DNA of 14,130 bases from Planctomycetota bacterium (GTDB taxonomy: Bacteria; Planctomycetota; UBA11346). The stretch spans positions 1 through 14,130 of the forward strand of contig JBBQSO010000115.1 in NCBI GenBank assembly GCA_038213805.1. Reading direction: 5' to 3'. Under the pieces are notes generated by a model. It was not told the origin of the DNA. It did not search any database and saw only the letters and a list, made by a program, of their open reading frames with translations. Positions 1-14,130 of the stretch are shown piece by piece. How positions within the stretch are numbered: position 1 is the stretch's first letter; each line of letters opens with the position of its first letter. Position numbers and translations under genes: made by a program.

Positions 1-184
1 GGGTCTCCGTGGCGCGGGAGAGCCGTTCCGATGCGGTCGCGTCGCCCTTGGAGCCGGGCGCGATGTTCGGTGCGACTATTCGCTGCGCGACAACTTCGCT
101 GACCTATCGGGGCTGCCGCGCACGCTCGCTGAGATGCGCCGCGTGGTCGATGAGGCGCACGACCAGCGGCAGCCGGAGAGGTGA
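1..184 (+). CDS. Possible 3' end of a hypothetical protein running in from the left edge (frame 2, ...DYSLRDNFADLSGLPRTLAEMRRVVDEAHDQRQPER*)
   Basis: Frame starting at base 2 is open to TGA at 182-184 and ends 60 nt before the next start. No family recognised, and not in the supplied ORF track. Confidence 0.3.
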   Translation, partial: GLRGAGEPFRCGRVALGAGRDVRCDYSLRDNFADLSGLPRTLAEMRRVVDEAHDQRQPER

Positions 185-244
185 CGCGGCGGCGAAGCGT
201 TGACGCGAGGGGAGCGGCGCGGCGGCGGCAAACATCCCGCCGCC

Positions 245-1540
245 ATGCAGCGTCTGAAAAAGAGCGGAAACAACCGCTTCCTGGTCCACGCGGACGGCAC
301 GCCGTTCTTCTACCTCGGCGACACCGCCTGGGAGCTGTTCCACCGTCTCACCCGCGAGGAGGCGGCGCTGTACCTCCAGGACCGCGCCGCCAAGGGCTTC
401 ACCGTCATCCAGGCGGCGGTGCTGGCGGAATTCTCGGGGCTGGTCGAACCCGACGCCTACGGCCACCTGCCGCTTGCCGGCAACGACCCCACCAAGCCCG
501 ACGACGGCTATTTCGCCGACGTCGACTGGGTGGTGAATTTCGCCAATGGGCTCAATCTGGTCATCGCCATGCTGCCGACCTGGGGCGACAAGTGGAACAA
601 GAAATGGGGCATGGGGCCGGAGATCTTCACGCCCGAGAACGCGCGCACCTACGGCGAGTACCTCGGCAAGCGCTACCGCGAAGCGCGCCTGGTGTGGGTG
701 CTGGGTGGCGACCGCCCGATCGAGAACGACGGCCACCGCGCCATCATCAACGCCATGGCCGAGGGCCTCAAAGCGGGTGACGGCGGCAAGCACCTGATGA
801 CCTACCACCCGTCGGGCGGGCAGAGCTCGTCGCAGTGGTTTCACGACGCGCCGTGGCTGGACTTCAATATGATCCAGTCCGGCCACCGCCAGAATCGCGA
901 TTGCTATGATATGATCGCGCGCGACTACGCGCGCACCCCGGTCAAGCCGGTGATGGACGGCGAGCCGGCCTACGAGGACCACCCCAACAATTTCAAGCCC
1001 GAGAACGGCTGGCTTGACGAGTGGGACGTGCGCAAGGAGCTGTGGTGGGCGCTGCTCGCCGGCGCCTGCGGGCACACCTACGGCTGCCACGACATCTGGC
1101 AGTTCCTGTCGCCGGCGCGCCCCGCGGTGACCTTCGCGCGCACGCCCTGGACGGAGGCGCTGCACCTGCCCGGCTCGCACCACGTGCGCCACGCCCGCCA
1201 CCTGCTCGAGGCGCGACCCTACCTGACCCGCATCCCCGACCAGGCGCTGATCGTGGGCAATCCCGGCGTGCTCGCCGAGCGCCAGCAGGCTGCGCGCGGC
1301 GAGGACGGCAGCTGGGCAGTCATCTATTCCGCCGCCGGCCGGCCGATCGCCGTCGACCTTGGCCGACTGAGCGGCCACCTGCTGCGCGTCGCGTGGTTCG
1401 ACCCACGCACCGGCGCTGCGACCATCACCGAGACCGTCCCGCGCGCCGCCGGCGCGCGCACCTTCACCCCGCCGACGGCGGGCGCGGGCTGCGACTGGGT
1501 GCTGGTGCTGGACGACGCCGCCAAGGGGTACGCGATCTGA
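245..1540 (+). CDS. GH140-like (DUF4038/apiosidase-like) glycoside hydrolase with C-terminal putative collagen-binding-type beta domain
   Basis: Family-typical segments RFLVHADGTPFFYLGDTAWELF, YLQDRAAKGFTVIQ, WVLGGD, LMTYHP, WLDFNMIQSGH, KPVMDGEPAYE, GHTYG; C-terminal WFDPRTG...FTPP...DWVLVL. ATG 245 chosen over TTG 200. No signal peptide evident. Confidence 0.85.
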   Translation: MQRLKKSGNNRFLVHADGTPFFYLGDTAWELFHRLTREEAALYLQDRAAKGFTVIQAAVLAEFSGLVEPDAYGHLPLAGNDPTKPDDGYFADVDWVVNFANGLNLVIAMLPTWGDKWNKKWGMGPEIFTPENARTYGEYLGKRYREARLVWVLGGDRPIENDGHRAIINAMAEGLKAGDGGKHLMTYHPSGGQSSSQWFHDAPWLDFNMIQSGHRQNRDCYDMIARDYARTPVKPVMDGEPAYEDHPNNFKPENGWLDEWDVRKELWWALLAGACGHTYGCHDIWQFLSPARPAVTFARTPWTEALHLPGSHHVRHARHLLEARPYLTRIPDQALIVGNPGVLAERQQAARGEDGSWAVIYSAAGRPIAVDLGRLSGHLLRVAWFDPRTGAATITETVPRAAGARTFTPPTAGAGCDWVLVLDDAAKGYAI

Positions 1541-1584
1541 GCCCTGCGCGGCGCCCGCGCACGGCGGCCGCGCCGGGCACCCCC

Positions 1585-2427
1585 GTGCCGCGCGCGGGGG
1601 TCCAGCGCCAGCCGCGCGGCGACCTCTTCATCCTTTACCCGGACCCGCCGCTGCCGGCGCTGCCGCTGGTGGTCACCGAGGTTGGCGCCTCGCACTGGCG
1701 TGGCGACGGCACGTACGCGCGCAGCGCCTCGCGCATCCTCGCGGTCGAGCTGGTGCTGGCCGGCATGGTGCACCTCGAGCAGGATGGCCGGCGCGTCGAG
1801 GTCGGGCCCGGGCAGGCGTTCCTGCTCAAGCGCGGCAGCGACCACCGCTACAGCGCGGTCGGTGGTGCGGTGCGCAAGCGCTTCGTCGGCTTCGATGGGC
1901 CCTTCGCGCAGCAACTCATCGGCCTGCTGCCCGACCGGGTGGCGCCACGCGATCCGCGCGCGCTGGAGCGGCTCATCGGGCGCATCGAGGCCCTATTCCG
2001 CAACCGCCGGCCAGGCTGGCAGCTCGACGCGGCGGCGCTCGGCTACCGGCTGCTCGCCGAGCTCGGCGCGGCCGGCGCGGGACGCACGCCCGCGCCGCCG
2101 ACGCAGCACCCGGCTCTGATCGAGGCCCTGCGCCTGATCCACACCCGCGCCCTGCAGCCCTGCCCGGTGGCGTGGCTGGCGCGCCAGACCGGCACCAGTT
2201 CCACGCACCTCACCCGGCTCTTCCGCCAGGCGCTCGGCGTGCCGCCGCAACGCTACGCGCAGCGCTGCCTGATAGACCAGGCGCGCTTCCTGCTCAGCGG
2301 CTCGGACCTCACCTGCCAAGAGGTCGCCACGCGCCTCGGCTTCGCCGATCCATTGTATTTCAGCGCGGTGTTCAAGCGGCACGTCGGGGAATCACCGCAG
2401 GCGTATAGGAAGAGGACGAGAGGATAG
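1585..2427 (+). CDS. AraC/XylS family transcriptional regulator
   Basis: C-terminal double HTH (VAWLARQTGTSSTHLTRLFRQALGVPP...ARFLLSGSDLTCQEVATRLGFADPLYFSAVFKRHVGESPQAYR) and N-terminal cupin-like region (ELVLAGMVHLEQDG..VGPGQAFLL..H.Y). Start uncertain; in-frame GTG at 1585 chosen. The upstream part of ORF 1021..2427 overlaps the GH140 gene and looks spurious. Confidence 0.88.
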   Translation: MPRAGVQRQPRGDLFILYPDPPLPALPLVVTEVGASHWRGDGTYARSASRILAVELVLAGMVHLEQDGRRVEVGPGQAFLLKRGSDHRYSAVGGAVRKRFVGFDGPFAQQLIGLLPDRVAPRDPRALERLIGRIEALFRNRRPGWQLDAAALGYRLLAELGAAGAGRTPAPPTQHPALIEALRLIHTRALQPCPVAWLARQTGTSSTHLTRLFRQALGVPPQRYAQRCLIDQARFLLSGSDLTCQEVATRLGFADPLYFSAVFKRHVGESPQAYRKRTRG

Positions 2428-2438
2428 GAGTTGTGCGG

Positions 2439-2600
2439 GCTGCAAGTCACGAGTCACGAGTCACGAGCTGCGAGCTGCGAGCTGCGAGCTGCGAGCTGCG
2501 AGCGACCTCGATTGTCGTTGAGTGGGGACTTGCGGATACCCGAGGCAGGGATTTTCGCGAGTCGCGTAACTCGTGACTCGTGACTCGCGACTCGCAGCTC
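2439..2600. repeat. Heptamer inverted-repeat module A
   Basis: Left arm (GTCACGA)x3 2446-2466 plus (GCTGCGA)x5 2467-2501; spacer 2502-2554; right arm TCGCGAG, then TCGTGAC x2, TCGCGAC, TCGCAGC (2571-2598), the reverse-complement unit type. Confidence 0.95.
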
Positions 2601-2737
2601 CGACTGTCCACTGGCCAAAACGCCCAGCACCTCACACACGTGGTCGTATATCCCATGCCGGAAGGTCGCGGCGCCCATGGCGTGCGGCGCCGCGGGCGCG
2701 TAAGCTGCATGCTGGACCCGCGCCCACCGGAGATCGC

Positions 2738-5557
2738 ATGCGCCACCACTTTATCGTCCCGGCCCTGCTGCTGGCCGCCCTTTGCACGCCCGTGGCGCAG
2801 GCCGCCGAGGGCATCCCGTTGGCCAGCCTCGACCTCGCGCCGATGACCCAAGAGTATGGCCGGCCAGCGGTCGACCGCAGCGTCGATGGGCGCCCGATGC
2901 GCATCGCCGGCCAGGAGTTCGCGCACGGGCTGGGCACGCATGCGGCCAGCCAGCTCACCATTCGGGTCGAGCGCCACGCGCTGCGCTTCCACGCCCGCGT
3001 CGGCGTCGATGACGAGGGCCCCGGCGGCACGGTCGAGTTCCGCATCTCCGGGGACGGCAAGCCGCTGTGGTCCAGTGGCACCATGCGCGCAGGCCAGCCC
3101 GCCAAGGAGGTCGACGTGCCGCTCGCAGGCGTGGCGCTGCTGAAGCTCGAGACCGACGCGACCGCGGACGGCAACAAAGACGACCACGCCGACTGGGTGG
3201 AGGCGGAGCTGGTCATGCTGGATGGCGCCAAACCCACCACCATCGCCGACCCCGACGCCGAGCGCGACGCCGGCGCAGGCGAGCGCACGCCCTCGCACGC
3301 GCAGTACTTCACCTGGATCAACAACACCAACGAGGGCGCCACCGAGGCGCACACCCTGACCAACTTCGCCTTCTTCCGCTGGCTGCGCGAGATGTACGGC
3401 ATGCAGCTCGACATCTATGCCTGGGATGCCGGCAATCTCGACCTGCCGCGCGGCTACGGCACTACCGACAGCGCACGCTTCCGTGCCCAATACCCGCGCG
3501 GCTGGCAGCCGATCGCCGACGCCGCCGGCGCGCTCGGCTGCCGGCTCGGCCTATGGGGCGGTCCCGACGGCTTCGGCGACACGCCTGAGCAGGCGGCCGC
3601 GCGCATCGCGCTGATGTCCGGGCTGTGCCGCGACTACCGCATGGCCGAGTTCAAGTTCGATGGCGTGTGCGGCCAGCTGCGCCCCGAGAAGCAGGACTAT
3701 TTCGTACAAATGATGCAGGCGTGCCGGAAGTACAGCCCGGACCTGGTGCTGCTCAACCACCGGCTGCCGCTCGGCAAGGGCCTGCGCTACGCCACCACCT
3801 TCCTGTTCGAGGGCGCCGAGACCTACATCGACGTGCACATGGCCAACACCGGCACGGCCACCCACCACCGCGCCGGCGCCCTCGCCCGCGGCCTGCCGCC
3901 GCGCCTGACGCGTCTGACCGAGGACCACGGCGTGTGCATCTCGTCGTGCCTCGACGCCTGGGACGACGACCTGGTGCTGCAGGCCTTCAACCGTTCGCTG
4001 ATCCTCGCGCCCGAGATCTACGGCAACCCCTGGCTGCTGCGCGATGACGAATACCCGAAGCTGGCGCGCATCTACAATCTGCACCGCCGCTGGCGCGACC
4101 TCCTCACCCAGGGCATGGTGCTGCCCGCTGACGACTACGGCCCGTCTGCGGTCGCGCGCGGGGACGCGGCGACGCGCGTGGTGACGCTGCGCAACCTCGG
4201 CTGGGAGCCGCGCACCTACCAGGTGGCGCTCGACGAGGCCATCGGCCTGTCCGCCCCCGGCGCGGTCATGGTGCGCCTCTTCCATCCGCACGAGCGCATC
4301 CTCGGCACCCGGGCACACGGCGAGCGCGTGCCAGTGACGGTCGCGCCGTTCTCGGTCGCCCTGCTGCTTGCCACCACCGCGCCGTGCGCCGAACCGGGCG
4401 TGTCCGGCTGCGACGCAGAGGTCGTGCGCGACGTGCCTGGCAAGCCTCTGGTGCTGCGTCTGCTTGGCCTGCCCGGCACGACCGCGACGGCGACGTTCAC
4501 GCCCGGGCGCATGCCCGCCAAGACGGCGACCATCGACGGCCAGCCGCTGCCCGGCTTCGCCGCAGGCCAGCCGGTCTCCGTGACCTTCCGGGGCGCACCG
4601 TTGGCGCAGCCCAGCCACCGCCGCCTCGCCGAACTCGCGCCCTGCGCGGTGCCCGCCGATGCAGAGGCGCTCTACGAAGCGACCTGCTTCGCCGCCGACA
4701 ACGATGCGCTCGAGGCGCGCTCACTGCGTCGTTCAGGGCCGACGCTGGTGCCGCAGGTGCAGGCCGCGCGCGACGCCTTCTTCGCCCAGGAACTGTTCCG
4801 CACCCGCGGGTGCTGGGACAAGCTGCTCTTCGATGGCGAGCGCGGCACCGGTCTGGTGCAGGGTGGCCGGCTGCCGACGAACGTGGATGGTCAGCCCGAG
4901 CTGCGCCTCGACCTCGGCGCGCCGACCGTCGCCGACAGCTTCTCGCTGCAACTCGCCGGCGGCACCACCAGCGGCCAGGCCGAGGGCTCCGCCGACCTGC
5001 TCCGCTGGACGGTGCTGCCGACCACCGTCACCGCAGAGCAGGTGACCATCACCCCGCCCGCGCGCATGGCCCTGCGCTACCTGCGCCTCGCGCGCGGCTC
5101 CATGCACATCTGCGAGGTGACTGCCGAGCAGGGCGGCCTCGCTCTGCCGCGTACCTCCTGGCGCGCTTCGGAGCTCTTCGAGTCCTACACCAGGCGCACC
5201 GCGACCGCCGCCTGGAGCGCGACCGTCACGCTCGGCCACGAGGCTCCCGGCAGCTACCTGTGCATCGCGCTGGAAGGCGAACACGGCGTCGACGGCGCCT
5301 GGGCCGCCGCGCGCCTCGCCGGCCGCCCGCTCGGCTGCCCGGACCGCGCGCCGTCGTTCCTCAGCAACGTCTGGGAGGCACCGGTGCGGCAGGCCGGCAG
5401 CAACCTCACCTATTACCTGCCGGTGACACCCGACATGGCCGGCAAAGCGCTCGACCTGGTGGTGCTGACGCTGGCCAACGGCAAGAACACGTACAAGCCG
5501 GTGGCCTGGATCACCAGCCGCGAGCCGATGGTGGGCAGGGTGGTGGTGGTGGAATGA
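2738..5557 (+). CDS. Secreted 939-aa protein: signal peptide, NPCBM/NEW2 module, putative clan GH-D-like TIM-barrel glycosidase and C-terminal beta-sandwich (discoidin-like) regions
   Basis: GGAG RBS 2729-2732 before ATG 2738; signal peptide MRHHFIVPALLLAALCTPVAQA; NPCBM motifs DRSVDG..MRIAG..FAHGLGTHA, FHARVGVDD, VEFRISGDGK.LW, GNKDDHADW; GH27/36-like LDIYAWDAG and FKFDG; late DLG...SADLLRW...RYLR...ICEV. Confidence 0.8.
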   Translation: MRHHFIVPALLLAALCTPVAQAAEGIPLASLDLAPMTQEYGRPAVDRSVDGRPMRIAGQEFAHGLGTHAASQLTIRVERHALRFHARVGVDDEGPGGTVEFRISGDGKPLWSSGTMRAGQPAKEVDVPLAGVALLKLETDATADGNKDDHADWVEAELVMLDGAKPTTIADPDAERDAGAGERTPSHAQYFTWINNTNEGATEAHTLTNFAFFRWLREMYGMQLDIYAWDAGNLDLPRGYGTTDSARFRAQYPRGWQPIADAAGALGCRLGLWGGPDGFGDTPEQAAARIALMSGLCRDYRMAEFKFDGVCGQLRPEKQDYFVQMMQACRKYSPDLVLLNHRLPLGKGLRYATTFLFEGAETYIDVHMANTGTATHHRAGALARGLPPRLTRLTEDHGVCISSCLDAWDDDLVLQAFNRSLILAPEIYGNPWLLRDDEYPKLARIYNLHRRWRDLLTQGMVLPADDYGPSAVARGDAATRVVTLRNLGWEPRTYQVALDEAIGLSAPGAVMVRLFHPHERILGTRAHGERVPVTVAPFSVALLLATTAPCAEPGVSGCDAEVVRDVPGKPLVLRLLGLPGTTATATFTPGRMPAKTATIDGQPLPGFAAGQPVSVTFRGAPLAQPSHRRLAELAPCAVPADAEALYEATCFAADNDALEARSLRRSGPTLVPQVQAARDAFFAQELFRTRGCWDKLLFDGERGTGLVQGGRLPTNVDGQPELRLDLGAPTVADSFSLQLAGGTTSGQAEGSADLLRWTVLPTTVTAEQVTITPPARMALRYLRLARGSMHICEVTAEQGGLALPRTSWRASELFESYTRRTATAAWSATVTLGHEAPGSYLCIALEGEHGVDGAWAAARLAGRPLGCPDRAPSFLSNVWEAPVRQAGSNLTYYLPVTPDMAGKALDLVVLTLANGKNTYKPVAWITSREPMVGRVVVVE

Positions 5558-5569
5558 ATGGCGATGGGA

Positions 5570-5748
5570 GTGGCGAGGGGCGAGTGGCGAGTCGCGAGTC
5601 GCGAGCTGCGAGCTGCGAGCTGCGAGCTGCGAGACTCAAGACTGAGACAACAGCTCACTTGATGCGCACGTCGGGAGCGATTTTCTCGCCTCTCGCCTCT
5701 CGCCTCTCGCTGCTCGCTGCTCGCGACTCGAAACTCGCGACTCGTGAG
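5570..5748. repeat. Heptamer inverted-repeat module B between convergent genes
   Basis: Left arm 5570-5632: GTGGCGA, GGGGCGA, GTGGCGA, GTCGCGA x2, GCTGCGA x4; 53-nt spacer 5633-5685; right arm 5686-5748: TCGCCTC x3, TCGCTGC x2, TCGCGAC, TCGAAAC, TCGCGAC, TCGTGAG. Confidence 0.95.
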
Positions 5749-5754
5749 CGCAAA

Positions 5755-6936
5755 CTAATCGAGGGCCGGAAGATGGACGGTGAAGACCGTGCCGACGCCT
5801 TCGTGGGAGGCTACGCGGATCCAGCCGCCGTGGCTCTCGGCAATCTTCTTGCAGATGGCCAGACCGAGGCCCGAGCCGTCGTAGGTACCGCCGGTAAAGG
5901 CGCGCTGGAAGGCGCCGAAGATGCGCTCCTGATACGCTGGGGCGATGCCGATGCCGTTGTCGCGGACCGCCAGCACCCAGCCGGCGCCGTCGCGGGTCGC
6001 GGAGACGTGGACCACGGGCGGGCGCCCCGCGGCGCGGAACTTGAGGGCGTTGCCAATGAGGTTCTGCAGCAGCTGGAGGAGACGCGTGGCGTCGCCGCGC
6101 ACCATCGGCAACGCGTCGGCGGTGACCGTGCCGTGGGTCTCGGTGATGCGGCTGGTGAGGTTGTCGACCGCGGCCGCGAAGGCCTCGCCCAGGTCGACGG
6201 CTACCGCCTCGCCCTCCTCTCCGAGGCGGGCGTAGGCGAGCAGGTTGCCGATCAGCGCCTGCATGCGCGTGGTCCCGGCCATGGCGCGACCGATGTAGCC
6301 ACGTGCATCTTCGCCAAGCTGCCCGGCGCAGCGGTCCTCGAGCAGGGTCAGGAAGCCGGCCACCATGCGCAGCGGCTCCTGTAGGTCGTGACTGGCCACG
6401 GCGGCGAAGCGCTCGAGCTCGTGGTTGCTGGTCTCAAGCGCCGCGACCGCGTTGCGCAGCTCCTCCTCACCGCGCAGGCGGTCGGTGATGTCGCGCGTCG
6501 AGCCGGCGACCGCCTCCACCACGCCGTCCTCGGCCAGCACCGGGACGAAGATGTACTCGTAGTGGCGCGTACTGCCGTCCGGCCCGGTGAAAGGGGTCTG
6601 ATCGCGGACCTGCCCGCGCGTGGCGATGACCTCCTGGATTTGACGCTGCAGGCGCGCCGCCAGCTCGGTCGGATAACCAAGTTCGAAGAAGTCCCGCCCG
6701 ACGGCTTCCGCGAGGGGCTTCTGCCAGAGCATGAGCAGGGCCCGGTTGACATACAGAAAGCGGCCGTCGAGGTCGAAGATGTACGTGAAGTCGGGGGTGT
6801 GCGACAGCGCCGTGTCGAACAGCCGCCACTGCTTCCCGGTGCCGCGGGCGATGCGTGCGGTCTCTGGTCCGCGCAATCGCGTTGGGTGGAGCGCCGCCTG
6901 GTCAGCGGCGGGAATGGCAGCGGTGGGGTCCATCAT
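5755..6936 (-). CDS. Cytoplasmic PAS/PAC sensor histidine kinase (HisKA + HATPase)
   Basis: PAS region (YIFDLDGRFLYVN...AVAGSTRDIT), H-box ASHDLQEPLR, N-box NLIGNALKF, G1 DNGIGI, F-box IFGAFQR, G2 GSGLGLAICKKI. Start taken as ATG 6936 (or 6933); uncertain. Confidence 0.9.
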   Translation of the reverse strand: MMDPTAAIPAADQAALHPTRLRGPETARIARGTGKQWRLFDTALSHTPDFTYIFDLDGRFLYVNRALLMLWQKPLAEAVGRDFFELGYPTELAARLQRQIQEVIATRGQVRDQTPFTGPDGSTRHYEYIFVPVLAEDGVVEAVAGSTRDITDRLRGEEELRNAVAALETSNHELERFAAVASHDLQEPLRMVAGFLTLLEDRCAGQLGEDARGYIGRAMAGTTRMQALIGNLLAYARLGEEGEAVAVDLGEAFAAAVDNLTSRITETHGTVTADALPMVRGDATRLLQLLQNLIGNALKFRAAGRPPVVHVSATRDGAGWVLAVRDNGIGIAPAYQERIFGAFQRAFTGGTYDGSGLGLAICKKIAESHGGWIRVASHEGVGTVFTVHLPALD

Positions 6937-7036
6937 CGCCGCACTGATCCTGGACGGCACCGCGCCGCAGCCGACTGGCTGCCAGCGCGCTGCGCCACTA
7001 CCTGTGGACACAGCCCTGGGGCCACCCACCGCCCCA

Positions 7037-8803
7037 TCACAGCACCGTGTGCCACGACGGACTCACCGCGAATGCCGACATGATCAATCCCACGTGCGAG
7101 TAGCACTGCGGGAAGTTGCCGCTCTGCGTCGTGGTCGCCGGGTCGAAGTGCTCGGCGAACAGGCCCAGGGGGTTGGCCGCCTTGAGCGCCTTGCCCAGCA
7201 CCGCGGCGCCCTCCTCGACGCGGCCGAGGCGCGCGAGGGCCTCGGCCATCCAGAACGAGCAGATCAGGAAGGGGTGTTTGGGCGTGCCGAAGTCATCGTG
7301 GTGGCGGTAGCGGTAGTAGAACCCGCTCGCCGGGTCGCCACCCCAGGCAAGGTCCTTGGCGATGTGGTCGACGGTGCGCTCGCACAGCCCACGGTCGGGG
7401 AAGCCCAGCGTGGGCAGCAGCAGCAGTGCTGAGTCCGCGGTGCGGTGCCCCGGCGCGCTCCACAGCACGCCATCTGACACCGCGCGCTCGATGGCGGCGC
7501 GCGCGGTGTCGCGCCAACCGTCGATCTGCGCCGCGTCGCCGCGGATGCGGCCCATGCCGATCAGACGCGCGTAGCGGTCGAGCGCGGTCCACGACATCAT
7601 CGCGGTGTAGGTGTGCGGCTTCCAATCGCCGCGCAGCTCCCACAGCCCGGCATCGGGCTCGTCGAGGGTATCCAGACAGCGCGCCGCCAGGGTCGCGAGC
7701 AGCTCGTCGTAGTGGCGCGAGCGCAGGTGCGCGAAGCGCTCGTCGAAGTAGAGCCGCGAGAGCATCATCAGCATCTGCCCATAGACGTCGTTCTGCACGT
7801 GCTCGGCGGCCTGGTTCTCGGTGCGCACCGGCTTGGACCCGCGGTAGCCGGCCCAGTTCGTGCGCTCGGTCTCGGGTAGCGGGCGGGTGCCGTCGACGCG
7901 GTAGACGGGGTGCAGGCGGCCGACGTTCTCGCGGTGGATGACGTCGAACATGAAGCGCAAGATGCCTTCGAGCTCCTCGAAATGGCCGAGTCGATGGATG
8001 GCCGAGACCGTGAAGTAGGCGTCGCGCAGCCAGCAGAAACGGTAGTCCCAGTTGCGCACGTCGCCGACGATCTCGGGCAGGCTGGTGGTGATCGCGGCCA
8101 ACACCGCGCCGGTCTCCTCGAAGCAGTGCAGCTTGAGTGCCAGCGCCGAGCGGATGACCTCGCGCTGGAACAGCACGGGGGTGTTGCAGCCCATCACCCA
8201 GTTCCGCCACCACTGCTCGGTGCGCAGCTGGAAGGTTTCGACCAGCGTCGCCAGGTCGTCCTCCGGCGGCACCCCCCAGGTGAGGATGAAGTAGAGCGGC
8301 ACGCTCAGCGTCGCGTGTGTCCCGGCGAGCAGCTGGGTGAGCGGCATGGTGGTCGACAGGCGCAATTCGTCGTCCAGACCGAGGAAGCGCACGTGGCTGC
8401 TGCCGCGCTGCATGGGCGCGGGCTCCTTGCTCCAGCCCTGCACCGGTTGGATCTCGACGTTGATCTTGGGCAGACCGCTGAGGGGAATCACCTTGCGCAT
8501 CAGCATCAGCGGCCGGTAGGTGCGCCCGAACTGCTCGAAGCGCGGGAAGAAGTCGATGACCGCGAAGCGGTTGCCCTCAGCGTCCTCGTGGATGGTCTCG
8601 AGGACGTTGGTCGACTCCAGGTAGCGCTGACTGGACGTGCCGGGGCGCGCCGCCGCGATCGAGAAGTGCCCGCCTTGCGGGTCGAGCAGGCGTCCGAACA
8701 CCGGCGGCGAGTCGGGCCGCGGCAGGCACATCCAATCGATGGAGCCGTCGCGCCCGACCAGGGCCGATGCCTGGCAATTACCGATGAGGCCGAGTTGATA
8801 CAT
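7037..8803 (-). CDS. Glycoside hydrolase family 15 (trehalase/glucoamylase-like)
   Basis: N-terminal GLIGNCQASALV..DGSIDWMCLPRPDSPPVFGRLLD, RNWDYRFCWLRD, QNDVYG, PDAGLWELR, FLICSFW, ANPLGLFAEH, GNFPQCYSHVGLI. Confidence 0.92.
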   Translation of the reverse strand: MYQLGLIGNCQASALVGRDGSIDWMCLPRPDSPPVFGRLLDPQGGHFSIAAARPGTSSQRYLESTNVLETIHEDAEGNRFAVIDFFPRFEQFGRTYRPLMLMRKVIPLSGLPKINVEIQPVQGWSKEPAPMQRGSSHVRFLGLDDELRLSTTMPLTQLLAGTHATLSVPLYFILTWGVPPEDDLATLVETFQLRTEQWWRNWVMGCNTPVLFQREVIRSALALKLHCFEETGAVLAAITTSLPEIVGDVRNWDYRFCWLRDAYFTVSAIHRLGHFEELEGILRFMFDVIHRENVGRLHPVYRVDGTRPLPETERTNWAGYRGSKPVRTENQAAEHVQNDVYGQMLMMLSRLYFDERFAHLRSRHYDELLATLAARCLDTLDEPDAGLWELRGDWKPHTYTAMMSWTALDRYARLIGMGRIRGDAAQIDGWRDTARAAIERAVSDGVLWSAPGHRTADSALLLLPTLGFPDRGLCERTVDHIAKDLAWGGDPASGFYYRYRHHDDFGTPKHPFLICSFWMAEALARLGRVEEGAAVLGKALKAANPLGLFAEHFDPATTTQSGNFPQCYSHVGLIMSAFAVSPSWHTVL

Positions 8804-8844
8804 GCGCGGTCATCCCAGGGTGTCTGTCGTGCAAGATAAGATAA

Positions 8845-8860
8845 GCTGCGATTGTGCCAA
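8845..8860 (-). promoter_or_regulatory. Possible sigma-54 (-24/-12) promoter for the GH15 gene
   Basis: Minus strand reads TTGGCACAATCGCAGC: TGGCAC matches the -24 consensus with correct GG-N10-GC spacing, about 42 nt upstream of the start codon. The -12 element is CAGC rather than TTGC. Confidence 0.3.
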
Positions 8861-9056
8861 GTCGTGCACGCTCGCTGAAAAATCGCGCTCAGCGCACCCC
8901 GAGCAGCGCGCAGCGGCATTCCTGATGCCCAGTTCGCTGCAATACGCACGATCCTATGGATGCGCGGACGTCGTTCCGCCTGGAGCCACGGCTGCATGAC
9001 CACCATCGCGGTGTGCACATGATGCAGCTTATGGCGTTGCTCAAGGCCAACTCCAA

Positions 9057-9136
9057 GTTGCGCGCCATGAGTCGCGAGTGAAGGCAGGCTGTCCTCGCGA
9101 CTCGCGACTCGCGACTCGCTGCCCGTAACTTGCAAC
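9057..9136. repeat. Heptamer inverted-repeat module C with conserved core
   Basis: Left GTTGCGC GCCATGA GTCGCGA (9057-9077); core GTGAAGGCAGGCTGTCC (9078-9094); right TCGCGAC x3, TCGCTGC, CCGTAAC, TTGCAAC (9095-9136). Lies 23 nt past the proA stop. Confidence 0.9.
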
Positions 9137-9159
9137 GCGCACCGTGCGACTTCTCCCGC

Positions 9160-10494
9160 TCAGGCCCTGACCTGCCCCTCACCACGGCACACCCACTTGT
9201 AGGTGCACAGCTCGCGGATGCCCATCGGGCCGCGCGCGTGCACGCGGTTGGTGCTGATGCCGACCTCGGCGCCGAAGCCGAACTGGCCGCCATCGGTGAA
9301 GCGTGTCGAGGCGTTGTGGTAGACGCAGGCGCTGTCGACCTCGCGCAGGTAGGTCTCGGCCGCGGCGACGTCTGCGGTGACGATGCCGTCGCTGTGGTGG
9401 CTGCCGTGCCGCTCGGTGAAGCGGATCGCCTCGTCCAGGTCGTCGACCACCTTCACCGCCAGGATCAGCGCCAAGTACTCGGTCTCCCAGTCGGCGTCGC
9501 CCGCCGCCACGGCCCCGGGCAGCAGCGGCAGCGCGCGCGCGTCGGCGCGCAGCTCGACCCCGCGCGGCGCGAGCTCGGCCTGGAGCATCGGCAGGAAGCG
9601 CTGACTGACCGCCGCGTCGACCAGCAGGTTCTCGATGGCGTTGCACACCCCGGGGCGCTGGCACTTGGCGTTGACCACCAGGCGCAGGGCCATGGCGAGA
9701 TCGGCCGCGGCGTGCACGTAGAGGCTGCACACGCCCTTGTCGTGCTTGATCACCGGGACCTTGCTGCACGCCACCACCGCCTGGATGAGCGCCTCGCCGC
9801 CGCGCGGCACGACGATGTCGATGGCGTCGTCGCGGGCCAGCAGCACCGGGATCAGGGCGCGGTCTTGCTCCTGCACCAGCTGCACGGCGTCGGCGGGCAC
9901 GCCGGCAGCCGCCAGGCCGCGGCGGAAGGCCGTGGCGAGCGCGCGGTTGCTGTGCACCGCCTCCTTGCCGCCGCGCAGGATGCAGGCGTTGCCCGAGCGC
10001 AGGCACAGGCTGGCCGCGTCGACGGTGACGTTGGGCCGGCTCTCGAAGATGATCGCGACCACGCCGATTGGCACGGCCAGCTTCTGCGCGCGCACGCCCT
10101 GGGCGATGACGCGCTCCTCCAGCACCTGGCCGACCGGGTCGGGCAGGGTGGCGACCTGACGCAGGTCGGCGACCAGCGCGGCGAGGCGCGGGCCGTCGAG
10201 GCGCAAGCGGTCGACCATGGCCGCCGCCAGCCCATCGACGCGCGCCTGCTCAAGGTCCTTGGCGTTGGCCGCGAGCAGCGCCGCGCCGTCAGCCGCGAGC
10301 GCGTCCGCCGCCGCCAGGATGGCCGCGCGCCGCGAGGCGTCGCCCAGCAGCGCCAGGGCGCGCGCCGCCGGCCGGGCGCGCGCGCACAGCTCGGCGACGT
10401 GCGCGGCGATACGCGCCGTGGCTTCCGCCTGCGGACCCGCGGTGGCACGCTGGGCGGAGGCGGACGCGGGCGGGGTGGGCAGGGACTGGCTCAT
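9160..10494 (-). CDS. proA: Gamma-glutamyl phosphate reductase (glutamate-5-semialdehyde dehydrogenase)
   Basis: LPDPVG, VPIGVVAIIFESRPNVT, SGNACILRGGKEA, IVVPRGGEALI, NAKCQRPGVCNAIENLLV, HGSHHSDGIVT, VDSACVYHNASTRFTDGGQFGFGAEVGIST..HARGPMG..ELCTYK. ATG 10494 chosen. Confidence 0.96.
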   Translation of the reverse strand: MSQSLPTPPASASAQRATAGPQAEATARIAAHVAELCARARPAARALALLGDASRRAAILAAADALAADGAALLAANAKDLEQARVDGLAAAMVDRLRLDGPRLAALVADLRQVATLPDPVGQVLEERVIAQGVRAQKLAVPIGVVAIIFESRPNVTVDAASLCLRSGNACILRGGKEAVHSNRALATAFRRGLAAAGVPADAVQLVQEQDRALIPVLLARDDAIDIVVPRGGEALIQAVVACSKVPVIKHDKGVCSLYVHAAADLAMALRLVVNAKCQRPGVCNAIENLLVDAAVSQRFLPMLQAELAPRGVELRADARALPLLPGAVAAGDADWETEYLALILAVKVVDDLDEAIRFTERHGSHHSDGIVTADVAAAETYLREVDSACVYHNASTRFTDGGQFGFGAEVGISTNRVHARGPMGIRELCTYKWVCRGEGQVRA

Positions 10495-10600
10495 GGTAGG
10501 CGCAGCTTCGCGTTCGCCCCGCCCGCGCAAGCCGCGCGCCGCCAACGATGGCACCGGGAACCGCCATTGCCGACCCGCACCCGCGCGCTCTCATGCCATC

Positions 10601-11533
10601 ATGCTGCTGCTCATCATGCGACGGCTCGGCGCCGGGCTGGCGGTGGTGTGGCTGGTGCACCTGCTGACCTTCGCCGCCCTGCGCCTGATGCCCGGCGACC
10701 CCTGGGCCGACCTCGCCGGCGACCGCGCCGTACCGGCCGCGACGGTTGCGCGCATGCAGGCGCTCTACGGGCAGGACCGCCCGATGGTCGTCCAGTACGC
10801 CGACGACCTGTGGGCCAAGCTGCACGGCGACCTCGGCGCCAGCCTCAAGCTCGCCGCCGGCCACGACGTCGGCGACCTGCTGCTGCGCGCCGCGCCAGTG
10901 TCGCTCAGCCTCGGGTGCGGCGCGCTGCTGCTGGCCCTGGGCTTCGGTCTGCCCGCCGGGATCCTCGCTGCTCGCCGCGCGCGCGCCGGCGCCGCCGCTG
11001 CCGACCACGTGGTGCGCGCCCTCGCCACGCTCGGCAGCAGCACGCCCGCCTTCGTCGTCGGCCCGCTGCTGCTGATCGTCTTCAGCCTGACCCTGGGTTG
11101 GCTGCCCGCCGGCGGCATCGACCGCCCCGGCGCGCTGCTGCTGCCGATCGCCACCCTCGCCCTGCCGCTCGCCGCCGAATTCGCCCGCCTGGTGCGCGCC
11201 AGCCTACTCGGCGAACTCGGCGCCGACTTCGTGCGCACCGCGCGCGCCAAAGGCGCGGACGAAACGACCATCGTCCTCGATCACGCTTTACGCCCGGCCT
11301 TCGCTCCCGTGCTCGCCTACCTCGGCACCGCTGCCGCCAGCGTGCTGACTGGGGCGATGGTGGTGGAGTCGCTGTTCGCCATTCCGGGGCTGGGCTACTA
11401 CTTCGTCACCGGTGCGCTGCAGCAGGACTGGACGGTGGTCAGCGGCGCGGCGCTGCTCTACGCCGTTGCGATAGTGATCTGCAATCTGGCGGCGGATCTG
11501 GGGATGATGTGGTTGGATCCGCGGACGCGGTGA
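10601..11533 (+). CDS. Peptide/nickel ABC transporter permease, OppB/DppB type
   Basis: N-terminal RRL...LTFAALRLMPGDP, YGQDRP..VQY, GDLGAS; hydrophobic segments; EAA loop ELGADFVRTARAKGADETTIVLDHALRP; VESLFAIPGLG; C-terminal NLAADL...LDPR. Confidence 0.92.
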   Translation: MLLLIMRRLGAGLAVVWLVHLLTFAALRLMPGDPWADLAGDRAVPAATVARMQALYGQDRPMVVQYADDLWAKLHGDLGASLKLAAGHDVGDLLLRAAPVSLSLGCGALLLALGFGLPAGILAARRARAGAAAADHVVRALATLGSSTPAFVVGPLLLIVFSLTLGWLPAGGIDRPGALLLPIATLALPLAAEFARLVRASLLGELGADFVRTARAKGADETTIVLDHALRPAFAPVLAYLGTAAASVLTGAMVVESLFAIPGLGYYFVTGALQQDWTVVSGAALLYAVAIVICNLAADLGMMWLDPRTR

Positions 11534-11540
11534 AGAGGGC

Positions 11541-11610
11541 TTCTCGCTTCTCGCTTCTCGCTTCTCGCTTCTCGCTTCTCGCTTCTCGCTTCTCGCTTCT
11601 CGCTTCTCGC
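11541..11610. repeat. Perfect heptamer microsatellite D, (TTCTCGC)x10
   Basis: Ten exact copies starting 8 nt after the permease stop. In the TCG-NNN-C phase the unit is TCGCTTC, reverse complement GAAGCGA. Confidence 0.97.
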
Positions 11611-11670
11611 TTGGGAGACGGAAACTGCAGCGATGGCGCGGGCATGTCGGGAATTCTTTGCGGTTGCGGG

Positions 11671-11821
11671 GTGTGCTCTCCTTCAGGAACCCCGATTGTC
11701 CCGAGCGTGCTCGCCGTCAAGGAGCTGCGGCTGCGCCTTCGCCCGCGGGGCGCGGCGGCCGGGGCGGCCGTCCTTGACCGCTGCGCGCGCTCTGGGGTGG
11801 GGTGAGGAAAGGAGAGCAGAC
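11671..11821 (+). promoter_or_regulatory. Predicted long hairpin leader sequestering the RBS of the four-helix-bundle gene
   Basis: Nested complementary pairs: TGCTCTCCTT 11674-11683 / AAGGAGAGCA 11809-11818; ACCCC 11689-11693 / GGGGT 11799-11803; GAGCGTGC 11703-11710 / GCGCGCTC 11785-11792; GTCAAGGA 11716-11723 / TCCTTGAC 11771-11778; GCTGCGCC 11730-11737 / GGCGCGGC 11749-11756 (some with G-U pairs). Confidence 0.65.
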
Positions 11822-12175
11822 ATGCCTCGATACGAGCGATTCAGGGTTTGGCATACGGCGCGGGAGGTGGTGAAGGAGGTACAGCTGGCTGCGGCGGAAT
11901 TCGGCGACTGCGGCGGAGGACTGACCAACCAGCTCCGGCGCGCGGCGATCTCCATCGCGTCCAATATCGCGGAGGGATCCGAGAAGACCTCCGACGCGGA
12001 ACTGCGGCGGTACTTCGCCATCGCGCGGGGATCCTGCGCGGAAGCGACCGCGCAGGTGACCATCGCGTACGATATGGGACTCGTGAACGAGGAGCGCTTC
12101 GTGACGCTCACGGACCGGCTGGACCACGTCGGTCGGATGCTCTCCGCCTTCATCACCCGCCTGGAAAGCGGGTGA
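11822..12175 (+). CDS. Four-helix-bundle protein (23S rRNA intervening-sequence protein family, structurally Avd-like), 117 aa
   Basis: Strong RBS AGGAAAGGAG before ATG 11822; hallmark motifs VW..A, GLTNQLRRAAISIASNIAEG and F.IARGS..E...Q..IA.D.G. Confidence 0.92.
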   Translation: MPRYERFRVWHTAREVVKEVQLAAAEFGDCGGGLTNQLRRAAISIASNIAEGSEKTSDAELRRYFAIARGSCAEATAQVTIAYDMGLVNEERFVTLTDRLDHVGRMLSAFITRLESG

Positions 12176-12199
12176 TTGGGGTGATCACCTACGACCTGA

Positions 12200-12487
12200 G
12201 TCACGAGTGGCGAGAAGCGAGAAGCGAGTGGCGAGTGGCGAGTCGCGAGGAAGACCGGCTGTCCTCGCGACTCGCGGCTCGAAACTCGCAGCTCATCGCA
12301 ACGTTGCGCGGAGTTAGCCACGAGTCGCGAGTCACGAGGAGGACCGGCTGTCCTCGCGACTCGCGACTCGAAGCTCGAAGCTCAACCCCTTCCGTTGCGC
12401 GAAACCAGCCACGAGCTGCGAGTCACGAGTTGCGAGCGCAGGCAGGCCGTCTTCGCGACTCGCGACTCGCAGCTCGAAACTGGTCAC
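12200..12487. repeat. Cluster E: three tandem heptamer inverted-repeat modules
   Basis: E1 12200-12292 (7 left units, core GGAAGACCGGCTGTCC, 4 right units); E2 12317-12381 (3 left, core GGAGGACCGGCTGTCC, 4 right); E3 12408-12480 (4 left, core GCGCAGGCAGGCCGTCT, 4 right). Both linkers contain CGTTGCGCG. Confidence 0.95.
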
Positions 12488-12539
12488 TCCATTGCACGTA
12501 AACACCTCGCGCCACGAACGACGTCAAGCGGCGAAGACG

Positions 12540-13655
12540 CTACCGCACCCCGATCTTGCTATCCGTCACCCGCCGCCGGTACGCCCGGCTCCCCTCGTTC
12601 TTCGCCCCCGCGCTCTGCGCCGTGCAGATCGCGGCATGGTACAGCTCGACCGCGGCCGGGCCGACCACGGCGATGTCGAAGCGTGCGGCGGCCAGGCGCG
12701 CGGCGGCGCTGCGGCTCGCGCGCAGATCGCCGCTGCGCGCAAGTGCGACGATGGCGCCGGCGAGCGCGCTGGGGTCGCCGGCGGCGACCAGGGTGCCGCT
12801 CTCGCCGTCGGTGATCAGTTCGGCCATGCCGCCGACGGCGCTGGCGATCACCGCGCGGCCGCAGGCCAGGGCCTCGATCACCAGCGCGGCGGAGCGGTCG
12901 GTGCGCGGCGCGTGCACCAGCACGTCGCTGGCGGCGAGCAGCGCGGCGGCGGGGACCTCGCCAAGATCGCGGATCCAGTCCGGATCCTCCAGGCCAATCG
13001 CGCTCAGGGCTTCGGCCAGGTCGGGGCCGCCGCCGGCCACCACCAGGCGCACGTCAAGGTCGCGGCGCAGGGCCACCATGGCGGCGAGCAGGTCACCGGC
13101 GCCGGCGGCCTCGTCGTAAGGTCCGGCCATGCCCACGACCAGCGGTCCGCCGACCGGGCGCGGCGCGCGCGCGGCGCAGGCAGCGACATCGACGGCATAG
13201 GGCAGGATGCTGACGCGGTCGCGGCCCAGGCCGAAGGCGGCGATGGCGGAGGCGCGGTGGTTCTCGGTGGGGACCAGCACCCAGGACACGCGGCGGTCCT
13301 GCAGTCCATGCACCCGCGCCGCGTCGGCGAGGTGGGCGACGCTCGCCACCACCGGCAGGTGCAGGCGGCGGGCCAGGGTGCGCGCGGCCGGCAGCGAGCC
13401 CAGGCCGTGGAGATGGATCAGGTCGGGGTTCCAGGCGCCCACGCGGGCGATCAACTCGTGCCGGCCGCCCAGCCACCAGCGCGGCCGCGACGCGTGGATG
13501 GGGATGCAGGTAGTGCCGTCGAGGCTGCCCTCGCCTGGGGCGGCGAGCGCCACCTGGTGGTCGTTGGCGCGCAACCAGCTCATCATTGGCAGGACATCGC
13601 CGGCCTGGGCAGCAGCCAGGGAGTCGGCGATGTGGAGGACGCGGAGGCCGATCAC
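12540..13655 (-). CDS. Glycosyltransferase family 4 (GT-B)-like protein with degenerate donor-binding motifs
   Basis: LRVLHI N-terminus, HQVALAAP, PDLIHLHG, ILPYAVD, LVVAGGGP, ASDVLV...VIEALACGRAVIASAVGGMAELITDGESGTLV..GDPSALAGAI. GTG 13655 chosen; the longer ORF extension overlaps yacG. Confidence 0.85.
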   Translation of the reverse strand: MIGLRVLHIADSLAAAQAGDVLPMMSWLRANDHQVALAAPGEGSLDGTTCIPIHASRPRWWLGGRHELIARVGAWNPDLIHLHGLGSLPAARTLARRLHLPVVASVAHLADAARVHGLQDRRVSWVLVPTENHRASAIAAFGLGRDRVSILPYAVDVAACAARAPRPVGGPLVVGMAGPYDEAAGAGDLLAAMVALRRDLDVRLVVAGGGPDLAEALSAIGLEDPDWIRDLGEVPAAALLAASDVLVHAPRTDRSAALVIEALACGRAVIASAVGGMAELITDGESGTLVAAGDPSALAGAIVALARSGDLRASRSAAARLAAARFDIAVVGPAAVELYHAAICTAQSAGAKNEGSRAYRRRVTDSKIGVR

Positions 13656-13665
13656 GACAGAGCCT

Positions 13666-13713
13666 GAAAATGAATCATAAACTCTTTTATAACATTTGTT
13701 TGCGCTGAAAATT
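13666..13713 (-). promoter_or_regulatory. AT-rich putative promoter of the GT4-like gene
   Basis: Short AT-rich island in a very GC-rich window. Minus strand has extended -10 TGTTATAAA (13686-13694) and a second TATGAT (13674-13679); no clear -35. Confidence 0.5.
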
Positions 13714-13722
13714 CTGCGCCGA

Positions 13723-13947
13723 TCACGGGCGATCCCGATCACGACTGCGGGGCAGCTGCTCAAGCCCGGGATCCTGCTCGGCGAGGGCGGCGAGATCGGT
13801 TCCCGCGATGGTGTACTTCCCATCGAACCAGGCCCCCAGGTCGCGGTTGCGGCAGCGCGGCGAGCAGAAGGGGAAGCCCGCCGGGCGCTCGGCGCTGGCC
13901 ACCAGCACGGGTCGGCCGCAGGTCGGGCAGGGAAGGGTCTCTGACAT
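13723..13947 (-). CDS. yacG: DNA gyrase inhibitor YacG (zinc-binding)
   Basis: CPTCGRP...FPFCSPRCRNRDLGAWFDGKYTIAG matches the YacG C-x2-C...PFCSxRC..xDLxxW signature; ATG 13947, 74 aa. Confidence 0.92.
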   Translation of the reverse strand: MSETLPCPTCGRPVLVASAERPAGFPFCSPRCRNRDLGAWFDGKYTIAGTDLAALAEQDPGLEQLPRSRDRDRP

Positions 13948-14074
13948 CGTGGGGCATTCTCGCGCGGCGCGGGCGCAGTCCAGCCGCGCCGCGCACCCGC
14001 TGCGACCGCCACTTGCATCCGGTCCGGGACGCATCTGTGTCTTGGCACCCGGCGCGGCGGTCGGACACTGCGAC

Positions 14075-14130
14075 ATGCCCCGACCCTCCCCCCCGCTCCT
14101 GCCCCTGCTGATCGCGGCCGGCCTGCTGCT
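14075..14130 (+). CDS. Probable 5' end of an exported protein (truncated by window edge)
   Basis: ATG 14075 gives MPRPSPPLLPLLIAAGLL..., signal-peptide-like, divergent from yacG. Confidence 0.45.
   Translation, partial: MPRPSPPLLPLLIAAGLL

Follow-up and report, generated by a model that had tools for sequence, protein, structure and literature searches.

A rod-like leader hairpin of PF05635 genes in Planctomycetota, with relatives in other phyla, tentatively read as a single-strand DNA promoter

Overview of the locus

The window analysed here is a whole stretch of 14,130 nucleotides (nt), namely contig JBBQSO010000115.1 (positions 1 to 14,130, forward strand) of the assembly GCA_038213805.1, from a Planctomycetota bacterium of the UBA11346 lineage. 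Between an ABC-transporter permease gene (10217–11533, + strand) and a GT4 glycosyltransferase gene on the opposite strand, it carries a PF05635 gene preceded directly by a rod-like hairpin of ~150 nt. The gene product belongs to the 23S rRNA intervening-sequence (IVS) proteins, four-helix bundles of the Avd-like kind, and its nearest solved structure is XCC0516 (PDB 2GSC, E 1.3e-14). The hairpin is confirmed as real and as conserved far beyond chance. Together with relatives found before unrelated genes in other phyla, it forms a cross-phylum family of hairpins of ~130–165 nt, which we read as single-strand-DNA promoters of the Frpo/ssp kind. A first-pass annotation of the window had described the hairpin as a leader that buries the Shine-Dalgarno (SD) sequence of the gene; it had missed that the element is multicopy, that it crosses phyla, and that it carries promoter-like boxes on the opposite strand.

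Fold of the hairpin

Taken as RNA, the sequence 11671–11821 folds into a single nested rod with an energy of −95.9 kcal/mol (RNAfold), in agreement with the first-pass description. In 200 dinucleotide shuffles the mean energy is −74.8 kcal/mol with a standard deviation of 4.55, which gives a z-score of −4.64, and none of the 200 is as stable. The fold is thus beyond its shuffled controls. Both stems singled out in that description are present. The 13-nt outer arms, GTGTGCTCTCCTT (11671–11683) and AAGGAGAGCAGAC (11809–11821), are complementary at 12 of 13 positions (92%), and the 8-bp inner stem, GTCAAGGA (11716–11723) with TCCTTGAC (11771–11778), is a perfect complement. The bottom strand of the region 11660–11830 also folds as DNA, with an energy of −47.9 kcal/mol and a z-score of −3.18 (one of 200 shuffles equals it). 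The coordinates of the parts of the hairpin and of the surrounding features are collected in Table 1.

From base to tip, the rod consists of five parts. The outer helix, in which the anti-SD and SD sequences face each other, varies in sequence with its pairing kept. Above it lies an asymmetric internal loop or bulge, followed by a helix of 3–4 bp that covaries freely (GAGC/GCTC, GGTC/GACC, GGCC/GGCC, and others). The fourth part is the near-invariant core, CGTGCTCGCCGTCAAGG on the 5' side and CCTTGACnGCTGCGCGCG on the 3' side, with its own set of irregularities: a fixed U•G wobble (72 of 81 aligned copies), a U opposite C, one bulged U, and a C-N mismatch. The tip is formed by a variable apical stem of 22–55 nt. 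The core sequence is fixed while the neighbouring stems covary freely, which argues for a constraint beyond pairing.

In one sub-lineage (L087 251–393 and L088 1104–1247, genome G027) the core has turned into a regular helix (CGTCCTCGG / CC-GAGGACG). Standard pairs replace the U•G wobble, the U-C mismatch and the bulge, and the C-C mismatch alone is retained.

Table 1. Features of the hairpin and of the PF05635 cassette in the window
Feature	Position	Strand	Basis and remarks
Hairpin (leader element)	11671..11821	+	Coordinates as in the first-pass annotation; covariance-model match 11666-11824, 132.1 bits
5' outer arm with anti-SD CTCTCCTT at 11676-11683	11671..11683	+	Fold and inverted-repeat pairing
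SD sequence AAGGAG, paired to 11676-11683	11809..11814	+	7 nt ahead of ATG 11822; lies in the 3' arm
-10-like hexamer GACAAT, in unpaired bulge or internal loop	11695..11700	- (template strand)	Alignment and bottom-strand DNA folds
-35-like hexamer TTGACG, in near-invariant 7-bp stem	11715..11720	-	14 nt from the -10-like hexamer
Conserved core, 5' half CGTGCTCGCCGTCAAGG	11706..11722	+	Near-invariant columns 46-62; holds the U•G wobble and the U opposite C
Variable apical stem-loop	11723..11771	+	49 nt here, 22-55 nt among relatives; apical helices 4 and 5 covary
Conserved core, 3' half CCTTGACCGCTGCGCGCG, with a single bulged T	11772..11789	+	Columns 147-165
PF05635 gene (23S rRNA intervening-sequence protein; four-helix bundle, Avd-like), 117 aa	11822..12175	+	Pfam, 95.5 bits, E 2.6e-27
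Tandem array GCTTCTC, 10.6 copies of a 7-nt unit; left arm of the cassette inverted repeat	11539..11612	+	Tandem Repeats Finder (TRF), period 7, 100% matches
Array of CGAGNNG heptamers; right arm, inverted relative to 11539-11612	12204..12249	+	Period 7, 6.6 copies

Conservation and copy number in the planctomycete lineage

The genome of the window holds five PF05635 genes, of which three carry the leader (contigs C115, C6 and C9) and two do not (C19 and C29). Among the paralogous copies the leader is 88% identical over ~118 nt, whereas the proteins of C115 and C9 are only 30% identical. The leader was found by blastn in 20 of the 48 genomes of the family; searches widened to the order or class of this lineage added no genome to these 48. 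A covariance model built from 18 copies gave 211 matches at E ≤ 0.001 in 23 of the 48 genomes and 10 of the 18 genera, with up to 40 per genome; these are matches and not copy numbers (the best 150 of the 211 were listed), and the weaker ones may include echoes from the opposite strand. Genomes rich in the leader are also rich in PF05635 (30, 19 and 17 matches in G043, G016 and G027, respectively), and two near-complete genomes that lack the leader have no PF05635 match.

The main alignment was made from 82 matches at E ≤ 1e-11 in 71 sources (with 40 further places added) and comprises 81 distinct sequences. Standard pairs occupy 93.1% of the cells, compared with 36–42% when the partners are slid by 1–3 columns. 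Changes on both sides are seen in 24 of the 32 pairs (264 cells), and the covariation score is 0.308 versus 0.108 in shuffles; none of 500 shuffles reaches any of the five measures. The 81 copies are related to one another and were aligned to the model, which favours structure, but the slid controls agree, and so does a model-free run (RNAalifold/MAFFT) on the 18 copies, in which 16 of 32 pairs show compensatory changes. In the outer helix all five modelled pairs are compensatory and 89.1% of the cells are paired. Covariation among homologous leaders, which the first-pass annotation had named as a check on its structure, is therefore present.

An open reading frame (ORF) of at least 40 codons begins at the aligned ATG after 75 of the 81 copies. 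PF05635 is matched by 66 of these 75, in 65 cases above the Pfam cut-off. Eight others are short or cut, with no Pfam match at E ≤ 0.001, and one, which follows the weakest model match (56.8 bits; L059 198–346, G031:C457), encodes GH3 C-terminal and Fn3-like domains and not PF05635. In the remaining six copies the gene is broken, cut or absent. Roughly one in eight of the 81 copies is a pseudogene or remnant with its hairpin intact.

Matches on both strands ~800 nt apart were considered as terminal inverted repeats of a transposon; they were rejected as such, being two convergent PF05635 genes, each with a leader of its own. A decaying pair of this convergent kind is found on contig C47 of G027 (L013 979–1165 and 1497–1661), where the PF05635 frame after one leader is cut short by an early in-frame TAG, and the other leader has neither a start codon nor a gene.

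Position of the Shine-Dalgarno sequence

The burial of the SD of the four-helix-bundle gene, as claimed in the first-pass annotation, is seen in the window and in most of its homologues. Minimum free energy (MFE) folds were made for 79 distinct copies, all ending in ATG; the 5' arm pairs with at least 80% of the SD bases in 71 of them and with the entire SD in 59. An SD lying within a covarying helix, which defines an SD-sequestering leader, is a property of the PF05635-linked copies only. In relatives that precede other genes the hairpin closes ahead of the SD, pairing of the SD with the 5' arm is seen in none of 15 cases, and the start codon follows the CCTTGAC of the core at a distance of 65–110 nt, compared with 43–46 nt for PF05635. 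Since the SD lies outside the hairpin in other phyla, its burial is peculiar to the PF05635 version and is not the common function of the family.

The proposal of a translational lock in cis has thus kept its structural basis, namely the fold, the covariation and the burial of the SD. A block of translation on read-through transcripts would be a fair consequence of that burial, as judged from the folds, and it is as a function common to the whole family that the lock does not hold.

Relatives in other phyla and on conjugative elements

Relatives outside the lineage were sought with an exact pattern (the 5' half of the core, a gap of 25–55 nt, and CCTTGAC) in one genome per GTDB species. At least 130 stretches were found, compared with a rough chance expectation of under ten, and the DNA of 80 loci was taken for study. 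These contain 81 pattern matches, 64 of which continue into the 3' half of the core; six loci (L120, L121, L126, L127, L128 and L145) were judged to be chance matches inside coding sequence. The planctomycete-trained covariance model, run on 61 of the 80 loci, gave 45 hits at E ≤ 1e-8, several of them full-length. By record title, the carriers among the matches listed are Planctomycetota (including Phycisphaerae and Tepidisphaeraceae), Acidobacteriota (Bryobacteraceae, Acidobacteriaceae and Solibacteraceae), and Alpha-, Beta- and Gammaproteobacteria. Cultured carriers include Variovorax, and the complete genome of Diaphorobacter aerolatus also holds a copy.

The relatives in other phyla are located in regions of integrative and conjugative elements (ICEs) or plasmids that hold establishment genes. 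Outside the PF05635 group, Pfam assigns the 21 downstream ORFs tested to DUF932 (five), RadC (four), the ArdC N-terminal domain (three), the KlcA-type antirestriction family PF03230 (two), DUF2958 (one, with another in L116), an IS110 transposase, a cupin and a sigma-70 region 2 fragment (one each); one further ORF has a cytochrome match below the cut-off, and two have no match. A single Steroidobacteraceae contig (L160–L162) carries three tandem copies ~1 kb apart, the second heading a DUF932 gene and the third a RadC gene. The ORF after the first copy (L160) is methyltransferase-like by eye, with no Pfam match over its 35 readable codons.

The betaproteobacterial variant matches 289 plasmids of PLSDB, of which 259 are typed as conjugative. 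In an E. coli plasmid the copy lies between a PDDEXK nuclease gene and radC, adjoining an integrase gene. A Hydrogenophaga plasmid has two copies within one element, heading a hypothetical gene and a DUF2958 gene; the order of the block is integrase ... DUF932-ParB ... RepA-ParA ... relaxase, and from this gene order we take it to be an ICE of the Tn4371 type. Variovorax sp. UMC13, Diaphorobacter aerolatus and a metagenome-assembled genome of Burkholderiaceae (L116, L131 and L188) share an identical stretch of ~300 nt that covers the hairpin, its flanks and the start of a DUF2958 gene, which suggests recent transfer of one element.

Promoter-like boxes on the bottom strand

Two columns of the loop above the outer helix are nearly invariant, with an A in column 35 and a T in column 39 (80 of 81 copies in either case). 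They lie 4 nt apart, the columns beside them carry 0.3 bits or little more, and the facing side of the loop is not conserved. Read on the bottom strand, the 81 copies have the form TTGACG-N14-[T/G]AnnnT, in which the invariant loop A and T are the A and T of the second hexamer. In sigma-70 promoters it is the A at −11 and the T at −7 of this hexamer that matter most. The −35-like hexamer is TTGACG in 61 copies, TTGACA in seven and TTGACT in five; the −10-like hexamer is more variable, with TACGGT in 15 copies, GATGCT in nine, GACAAT in eight and TATGGT in six as examples. In DNA folds of the bottom strands of the 81 copies, the −11 A is unpaired in 99%, and positions 1–5 of the −35-like hexamer are paired in at least 94%. 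The fold of the window agrees, with ACAATC unpaired.

In copies from other phyla, TTGACG is followed after 15 nt by TGATAGGCT, TGTTACGCT, TGGCACGAT, TGCTAAACT, TACAAT, CACAAT and similar hexamers, and several of these copies carry the TGn of an extended −10 element. A consensus scan of 11450–12550 showed no conventional promoter with a 16–18-nt spacer. A rightward duplex promoter inside the 3' arm was rejected by eye, as its TTGACC has no −10-like hexamer at a sensible spacing. Sigma-54-like (TGGCAC) and sigma-32-like readings of some copies were likewise rejected by eye against the consensus sequences.

Comparison with known systems

In the leading regions of conjugative plasmids, which hold genes of the ardC, klcA/ardB, DUF932 and DNA-methylase kind, the transferred strand forms large hairpins in which −35 and −10 boxes are restored and from which genes are transcribed early. 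In F and in the IncI1 plasmid pESBL, 5' rapid amplification of cDNA ends (5' RACE) and RNA-seq have located the promoters Frpo1/Frpo2 (ssp1a/b), ssp2 and one of class 3, and in these reports the experimental evidence for single-strand promoters is confined to enterobacterial F and IncI plasmids (PMC12672017, PMC11541004, PMC13478746, 10.64898/2026.01.09.698686). The present hairpin resembles them in several respects. It is long and GC-rich, lies immediately before a gene, is stable on the template strand in the window, and is repeated before successive genes, and its candidate boxes lie on the arm that would serve as non-template strand only once the template strand has folded. The gene families served also overlap with those of F and pESBL, as far as these reports name them: antirestriction genes of the KlcA/ArdB type, DUF932, and a methylase. 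The F ssp2 region folds likewise (−82.4 kcal/mol, z-score −6.63). When its boxes are placed from sequence alone, they read TTGCAT-N15-TAAGAT on the same arm, with three unpaired bases in or at TAAGAT; the −10 region is thus partly unpaired in F ssp2 and in the window hairpin alike, and both the short spacer and the open −10 would have a precedent.

The differences concern size, host and setting. The present hairpin measures ~150 nt, compared with ~250–330 nt for Frpo/ssp, with a spacer of 14–15 nt, and it occurs in Planctomycetota, Acidobacteriota and non-enteric Proteobacteria. The copy of the window heads a chromosomal multicopy PF05635 cassette, with a base that also pairs the SD, and it is known here through its sequence. 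The described promoters belong to the leading region of a conjugative element, whereas the window copy lies between the permease and glycosyltransferase genes. By analogy, the hairpin, if functional at all, would work like an ssp/Frpo promoter, although both its sequence and its location set it apart from the described classes. A search of 10 supplementary files of PMC11541004 for the 8-mers of the core found none.

A second structured leader of similar genes is the radC RNA motif (RF01754), which Rfam classes as cis-regulatory and which is found upstream of radC and antirestriction genes of mobile elements. Both elements precede radC, antirestriction and related mobile-element genes, but the radC motif consists of four short hairpins, as opposed to one rod, and has another sequence. 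It has no match at E ≤ 1 in the window or in 13 related loci, nor at E ≤ 10 upstream of radC on L239. The model itself works, with seven matches of 85.9–123.3 bits in Diaphorobacter aerolatus (G048), well over the 40 bits taken as its threshold. On contig C1 of that genome three sites are found at 2.204–2.210 Mb, three at 4.305–4.314 Mb and one at 4.242 Mb (2204471–2209778 and 4242446–4313987). The copy of the present hairpin lies apart from them, at 1.337 Mb, so that two structured leader families serve the same sort of genes there. No family of Rfam 15 matches the hairpin in the window, in the 13 related loci or in L239.

Cassettes of the IVS type are the closest comparison for the gene. The ORF-bearing IVS of 23S rRNA and the IVS-like cassettes share the protein family and the placement of the gene inside inverted arrays of ~7-nt units. 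The leader hairpin is an added module, shared with conjugative elements, and is missing from two of the five cassettes in the genome of the window. PF05635 genes also occur inside cas operons (PMC3936711).

Translational silencing of outside transcripts has a parallel in insertion sequences. In IS10 and IS50, translation of the transposase is inhibited by fold-back: transcripts from outside carry the complement of the ribosome-binding site and are silent, and a transcript that starts internally escapes. The arrangement in the window would be alike in this, and different in that no transposase is involved and that the internal start, which we infer, would need single-stranded DNA.

In the literature search, with subscription journals outside its coverage, no description was found of a PF05635 gene leader or of a single-strand promoter in Tn4371-type ICEs or in Planctomycetota, and a search on 'radC RNA motif' returned nothing. 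As far as we could find, a hairpin of this kind on chromosomal IVS-like cassettes, combined with burial of the SD, is undescribed.

Proposed mechanism

The reading that we favour, with a confidence somewhat short of even, is that of an Frpo-like promoter of single-stranded DNA placed on IVS-like cassettes, whose RNA copy also locks the translation of read-through transcripts. The bottom strand, which is the template for PF05635 transcription, would fold into the hairpin whenever it becomes single-stranded. The invariant stem would then present TTGACG, and an unpaired loop 14 nt further on would present [T/G]AnnnT, both on the arm that serves as the non-template strand. Transcription would begin with RNA polymerase ~7 nt past the hexamer, at a point a dozen bases short of the SD, and proceed into the gene. 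A transcript with this start would have no 5' (anti-SD) arm and would be translatable. In duplex DNA the boxes would point away from the gene, with no rightward promoter. A read-through transcript from the upstream permease gene would carry the whole hairpin as RNA, with the SD paired as in the folds, and would probably be translated poorly or not at all. In the planctomycete lineage, the module heads multicopy PF05635 cassettes with inverted heptamer arrays; elsewhere it heads establishment and antirestriction genes of conjugative elements.

Several observations weigh against this scheme, in which promoter activity is a proposal drawn from alignments and folds. The spacer of 14 nt (15 in Proteobacteria) is shorter than the usual 16–18 nt, a range that may not be that of Planctomycetota. 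AnnnT is its own reverse complement, and the invariant A and T alone cannot name the strand. At variable pairs, 106 G•U cells fit the sense RNA and 82 A•C cells the bottom strand, and the mean MFE of sense and antisense is nearly equal (−85.4/−83.5 as RNA, −45.3/−47.0 as DNA). An unfiltered covariance-model search of F 50000–67000 gave a best E of 0.43 against the leading-region hairpins, which amounts to no sequence similarity. Alphaproteobacterial copies (L119, L176, L151, L185 and others, from Roseiarcus, Bradyrhizobium and similar hosts) have neither the −10-like loop motif nor a downstream gene. PF05635 relatives of the window protein appear in just two PLSDB plasmid records, both non-mobilizable. 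Finally, the window is an ordinary chromosomal neighbourhood and not a conjugative element; candidate occasions on which a chromosomal copy would become single-stranded are replication gaps, transformation, chromosome transfer, or a stage at which the cassette itself is single-stranded.

The gene-less alphaproteobacterial copies may represent a decayed or repurposed branch of the family. In two of them (L119 and L176) a second near-perfect palindrome directly follows the core hairpin.

Alternative explanations

The best of the alternatives, which we nevertheless regard as rather doubtful, is an element that acts in cis purely as RNA: the leader would hide the SD and keep the gene silent until it is opened or cut, by an endonuclease at the single-stranded A/U bulge, by heat, or by a factor in trans. 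The pairing of the SD in 71 of 79 copies and the compensatory changes at all five pairs of the outer helix are what such a lock would require, and the retained U•G wobble and the slight excess of G•U over A•C cells point the same way. The covariance model also scores the sense strand at 57–132 bits compared with 30–50 bits for the opposite strand (partly through asymmetry of the sequence), and several cassettes are co-directional with the upstream host gene (C115, C19 and C29). For a lock, however, pairing would be enough, and the constancy of the 7-bp stem and its flanks, whose sequence is the same across phyla, goes beyond that; hairpins of other phyla also close before the SD. In the convergent pairs one gene runs against its host neighbours, and read-through cannot be the sole source of transcripts; the other strand, moreover, folds about as stably.

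It is improbable that the hairpin has some other role as single-stranded DNA that involves no promoter, such as a signal of the ssi type that primes complementary-strand synthesis, a block to replication as at ssp2, or a site that is recognised when the cassette or conjugative element moves. Such a role would suit the equally good fold of both strands, the association with conjugative elements, and cassettes that are multicopy and flanked by inverted arrays. There are precedents too: F ssp2 is reported to act as a roadblock through its structure, and DNA synthesis can reportedly be primed from Frpo transcripts (10.64898/2026.01.09.698686, PMC12672017). The geometry is nonetheless that of a promoter or leader, with the hairpin always in one orientation to a gene that starts at a set range past the core (43–46 or 65–110 nt), and with a copy before each gene of the L160–L162 cluster, unlike an origin-type signal. 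No recombinase or primase gene accompanies the planctomycete cassettes in the regions inspected.

That the hairpin serves the Avd-like protein as its operator or RNA partner, which the first-pass annotation had also considered, is very unlikely. Here the PF05635 pentamer would bind its own leader in autoregulation, or the leader would be its RNA cofactor. Avd proteins of diversity-generating retroelements do bind nucleic acid, and linkage within the lineage is tight (66 of the 75 downstream ORFs); the core, however, precedes DUF932, RadC, ArdC, KlcA-type and DUF2958 genes with no adjacent PF05635, two of the five PF05635 genes of the window's genome (C19 and C29) do without the leader, and the leaders of paralogues are far more alike than their proteins. 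The idea of an RNA specific to this protein was therefore abandoned.

Hardly any credence is left for an ordinary duplex promoter on the bottom strand, with leftward transcription that leaves the PF05635 gene behind: TTGACG-N14-[T/G]AnnnT does read leftwards on duplex DNA, but its spacer has 14 nt, the scan for spacers of 16–18 nt was empty, and the right side is constant while the left side differs among copies, with heptamer arrays in some and, in others, the ends of unrelated host genes of either orientation.

Significance

Should the single-strand promoter reading be right, the family would be a searchable marker, defined by sequence and spread over at least three phyla, for the early-expressed establishment genes of ICEs and plasmids beyond the enteric bacteria, and its cultured carriers (Variovorax, Diaphorobacter and the Hydrogenophaga plasmids) would be at hand. 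The two-layer design, with a promoter of folded single-stranded DNA and burial of the SD on all other transcripts, would keep the gene strictly conditional. The control module shared with antirestriction genes is a testable lead on when PF05635 proteins are made. A wider view, which we consider possible but on balance unlikely, is that PF05635 cassettes are expressed only while their DNA is single-stranded (in transfer or transformation, in replication gaps, or during cassette spread) and are otherwise silent. PF05635 would then have a function in establishment, anti-defence or mobility, and the hairpin would represent a class of single-strand promoters of pan-bacterial range, carried over from conjugative elements to a selfish family of chromosomal genes. 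Apart from any mechanism, a well-supported structured family (81 distinct copies, with compensatory changes in 24 of 32 pairs) is missing from Rfam 15.

The PF05635 cassette and other features of the window

The arrays at 11539–11612 and 12204–12249 pair through 46-nt arms that are 83% complementary, and they enclose the gene together with its leader, which is the layout of an IVS-like cassette (a PF05635 ORF inside inverted short-unit arrays). The same layout is found at the PF05635 genes on C19 and C29, and an upstream array of 6–9-nt units lies within 130 nt in 61 of the 73 homologous copies with enough flanking sequence. The original definition of an IVS, an insertion in a helix of 23S rRNA, does not apply, since Rfam shows no rRNA match within the window and the flanking genes code for protein. 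The consensus scan of 11450–12550 showed no terminator.

The PF05635 frame is open for 63 codons upstream of ATG 11822, across the hairpin (ORF 11633–12175). Open frames of such length are frequent in this GC-rich DNA. A start further upstream in this frame was rejected, as the Pfam domain begins at residue 6 of the product of ATG 11822 and a good SD precedes that codon.

Further intergenic arrays of 7-nt units are found at 2439–2605, 5559–5744 and 9094–9119 of the window (CGAGCTG, AGTCACG, TGGCGAG / TCTCGCC, CTCGCGA). Some form inverted pairs, none encloses a gene, and they look like cassette arms without a gene. Weak matches to microRNA families at 5580–5746 merely reflect long hairpins. Directly past the cassette, at 12217–12500, lie about three tandem copies of an 89-nt unit (TRF period 89, 2.2 copies, 83% matches), each of which is a hairpin of heptamer units around GGACCGGCTGTCC.

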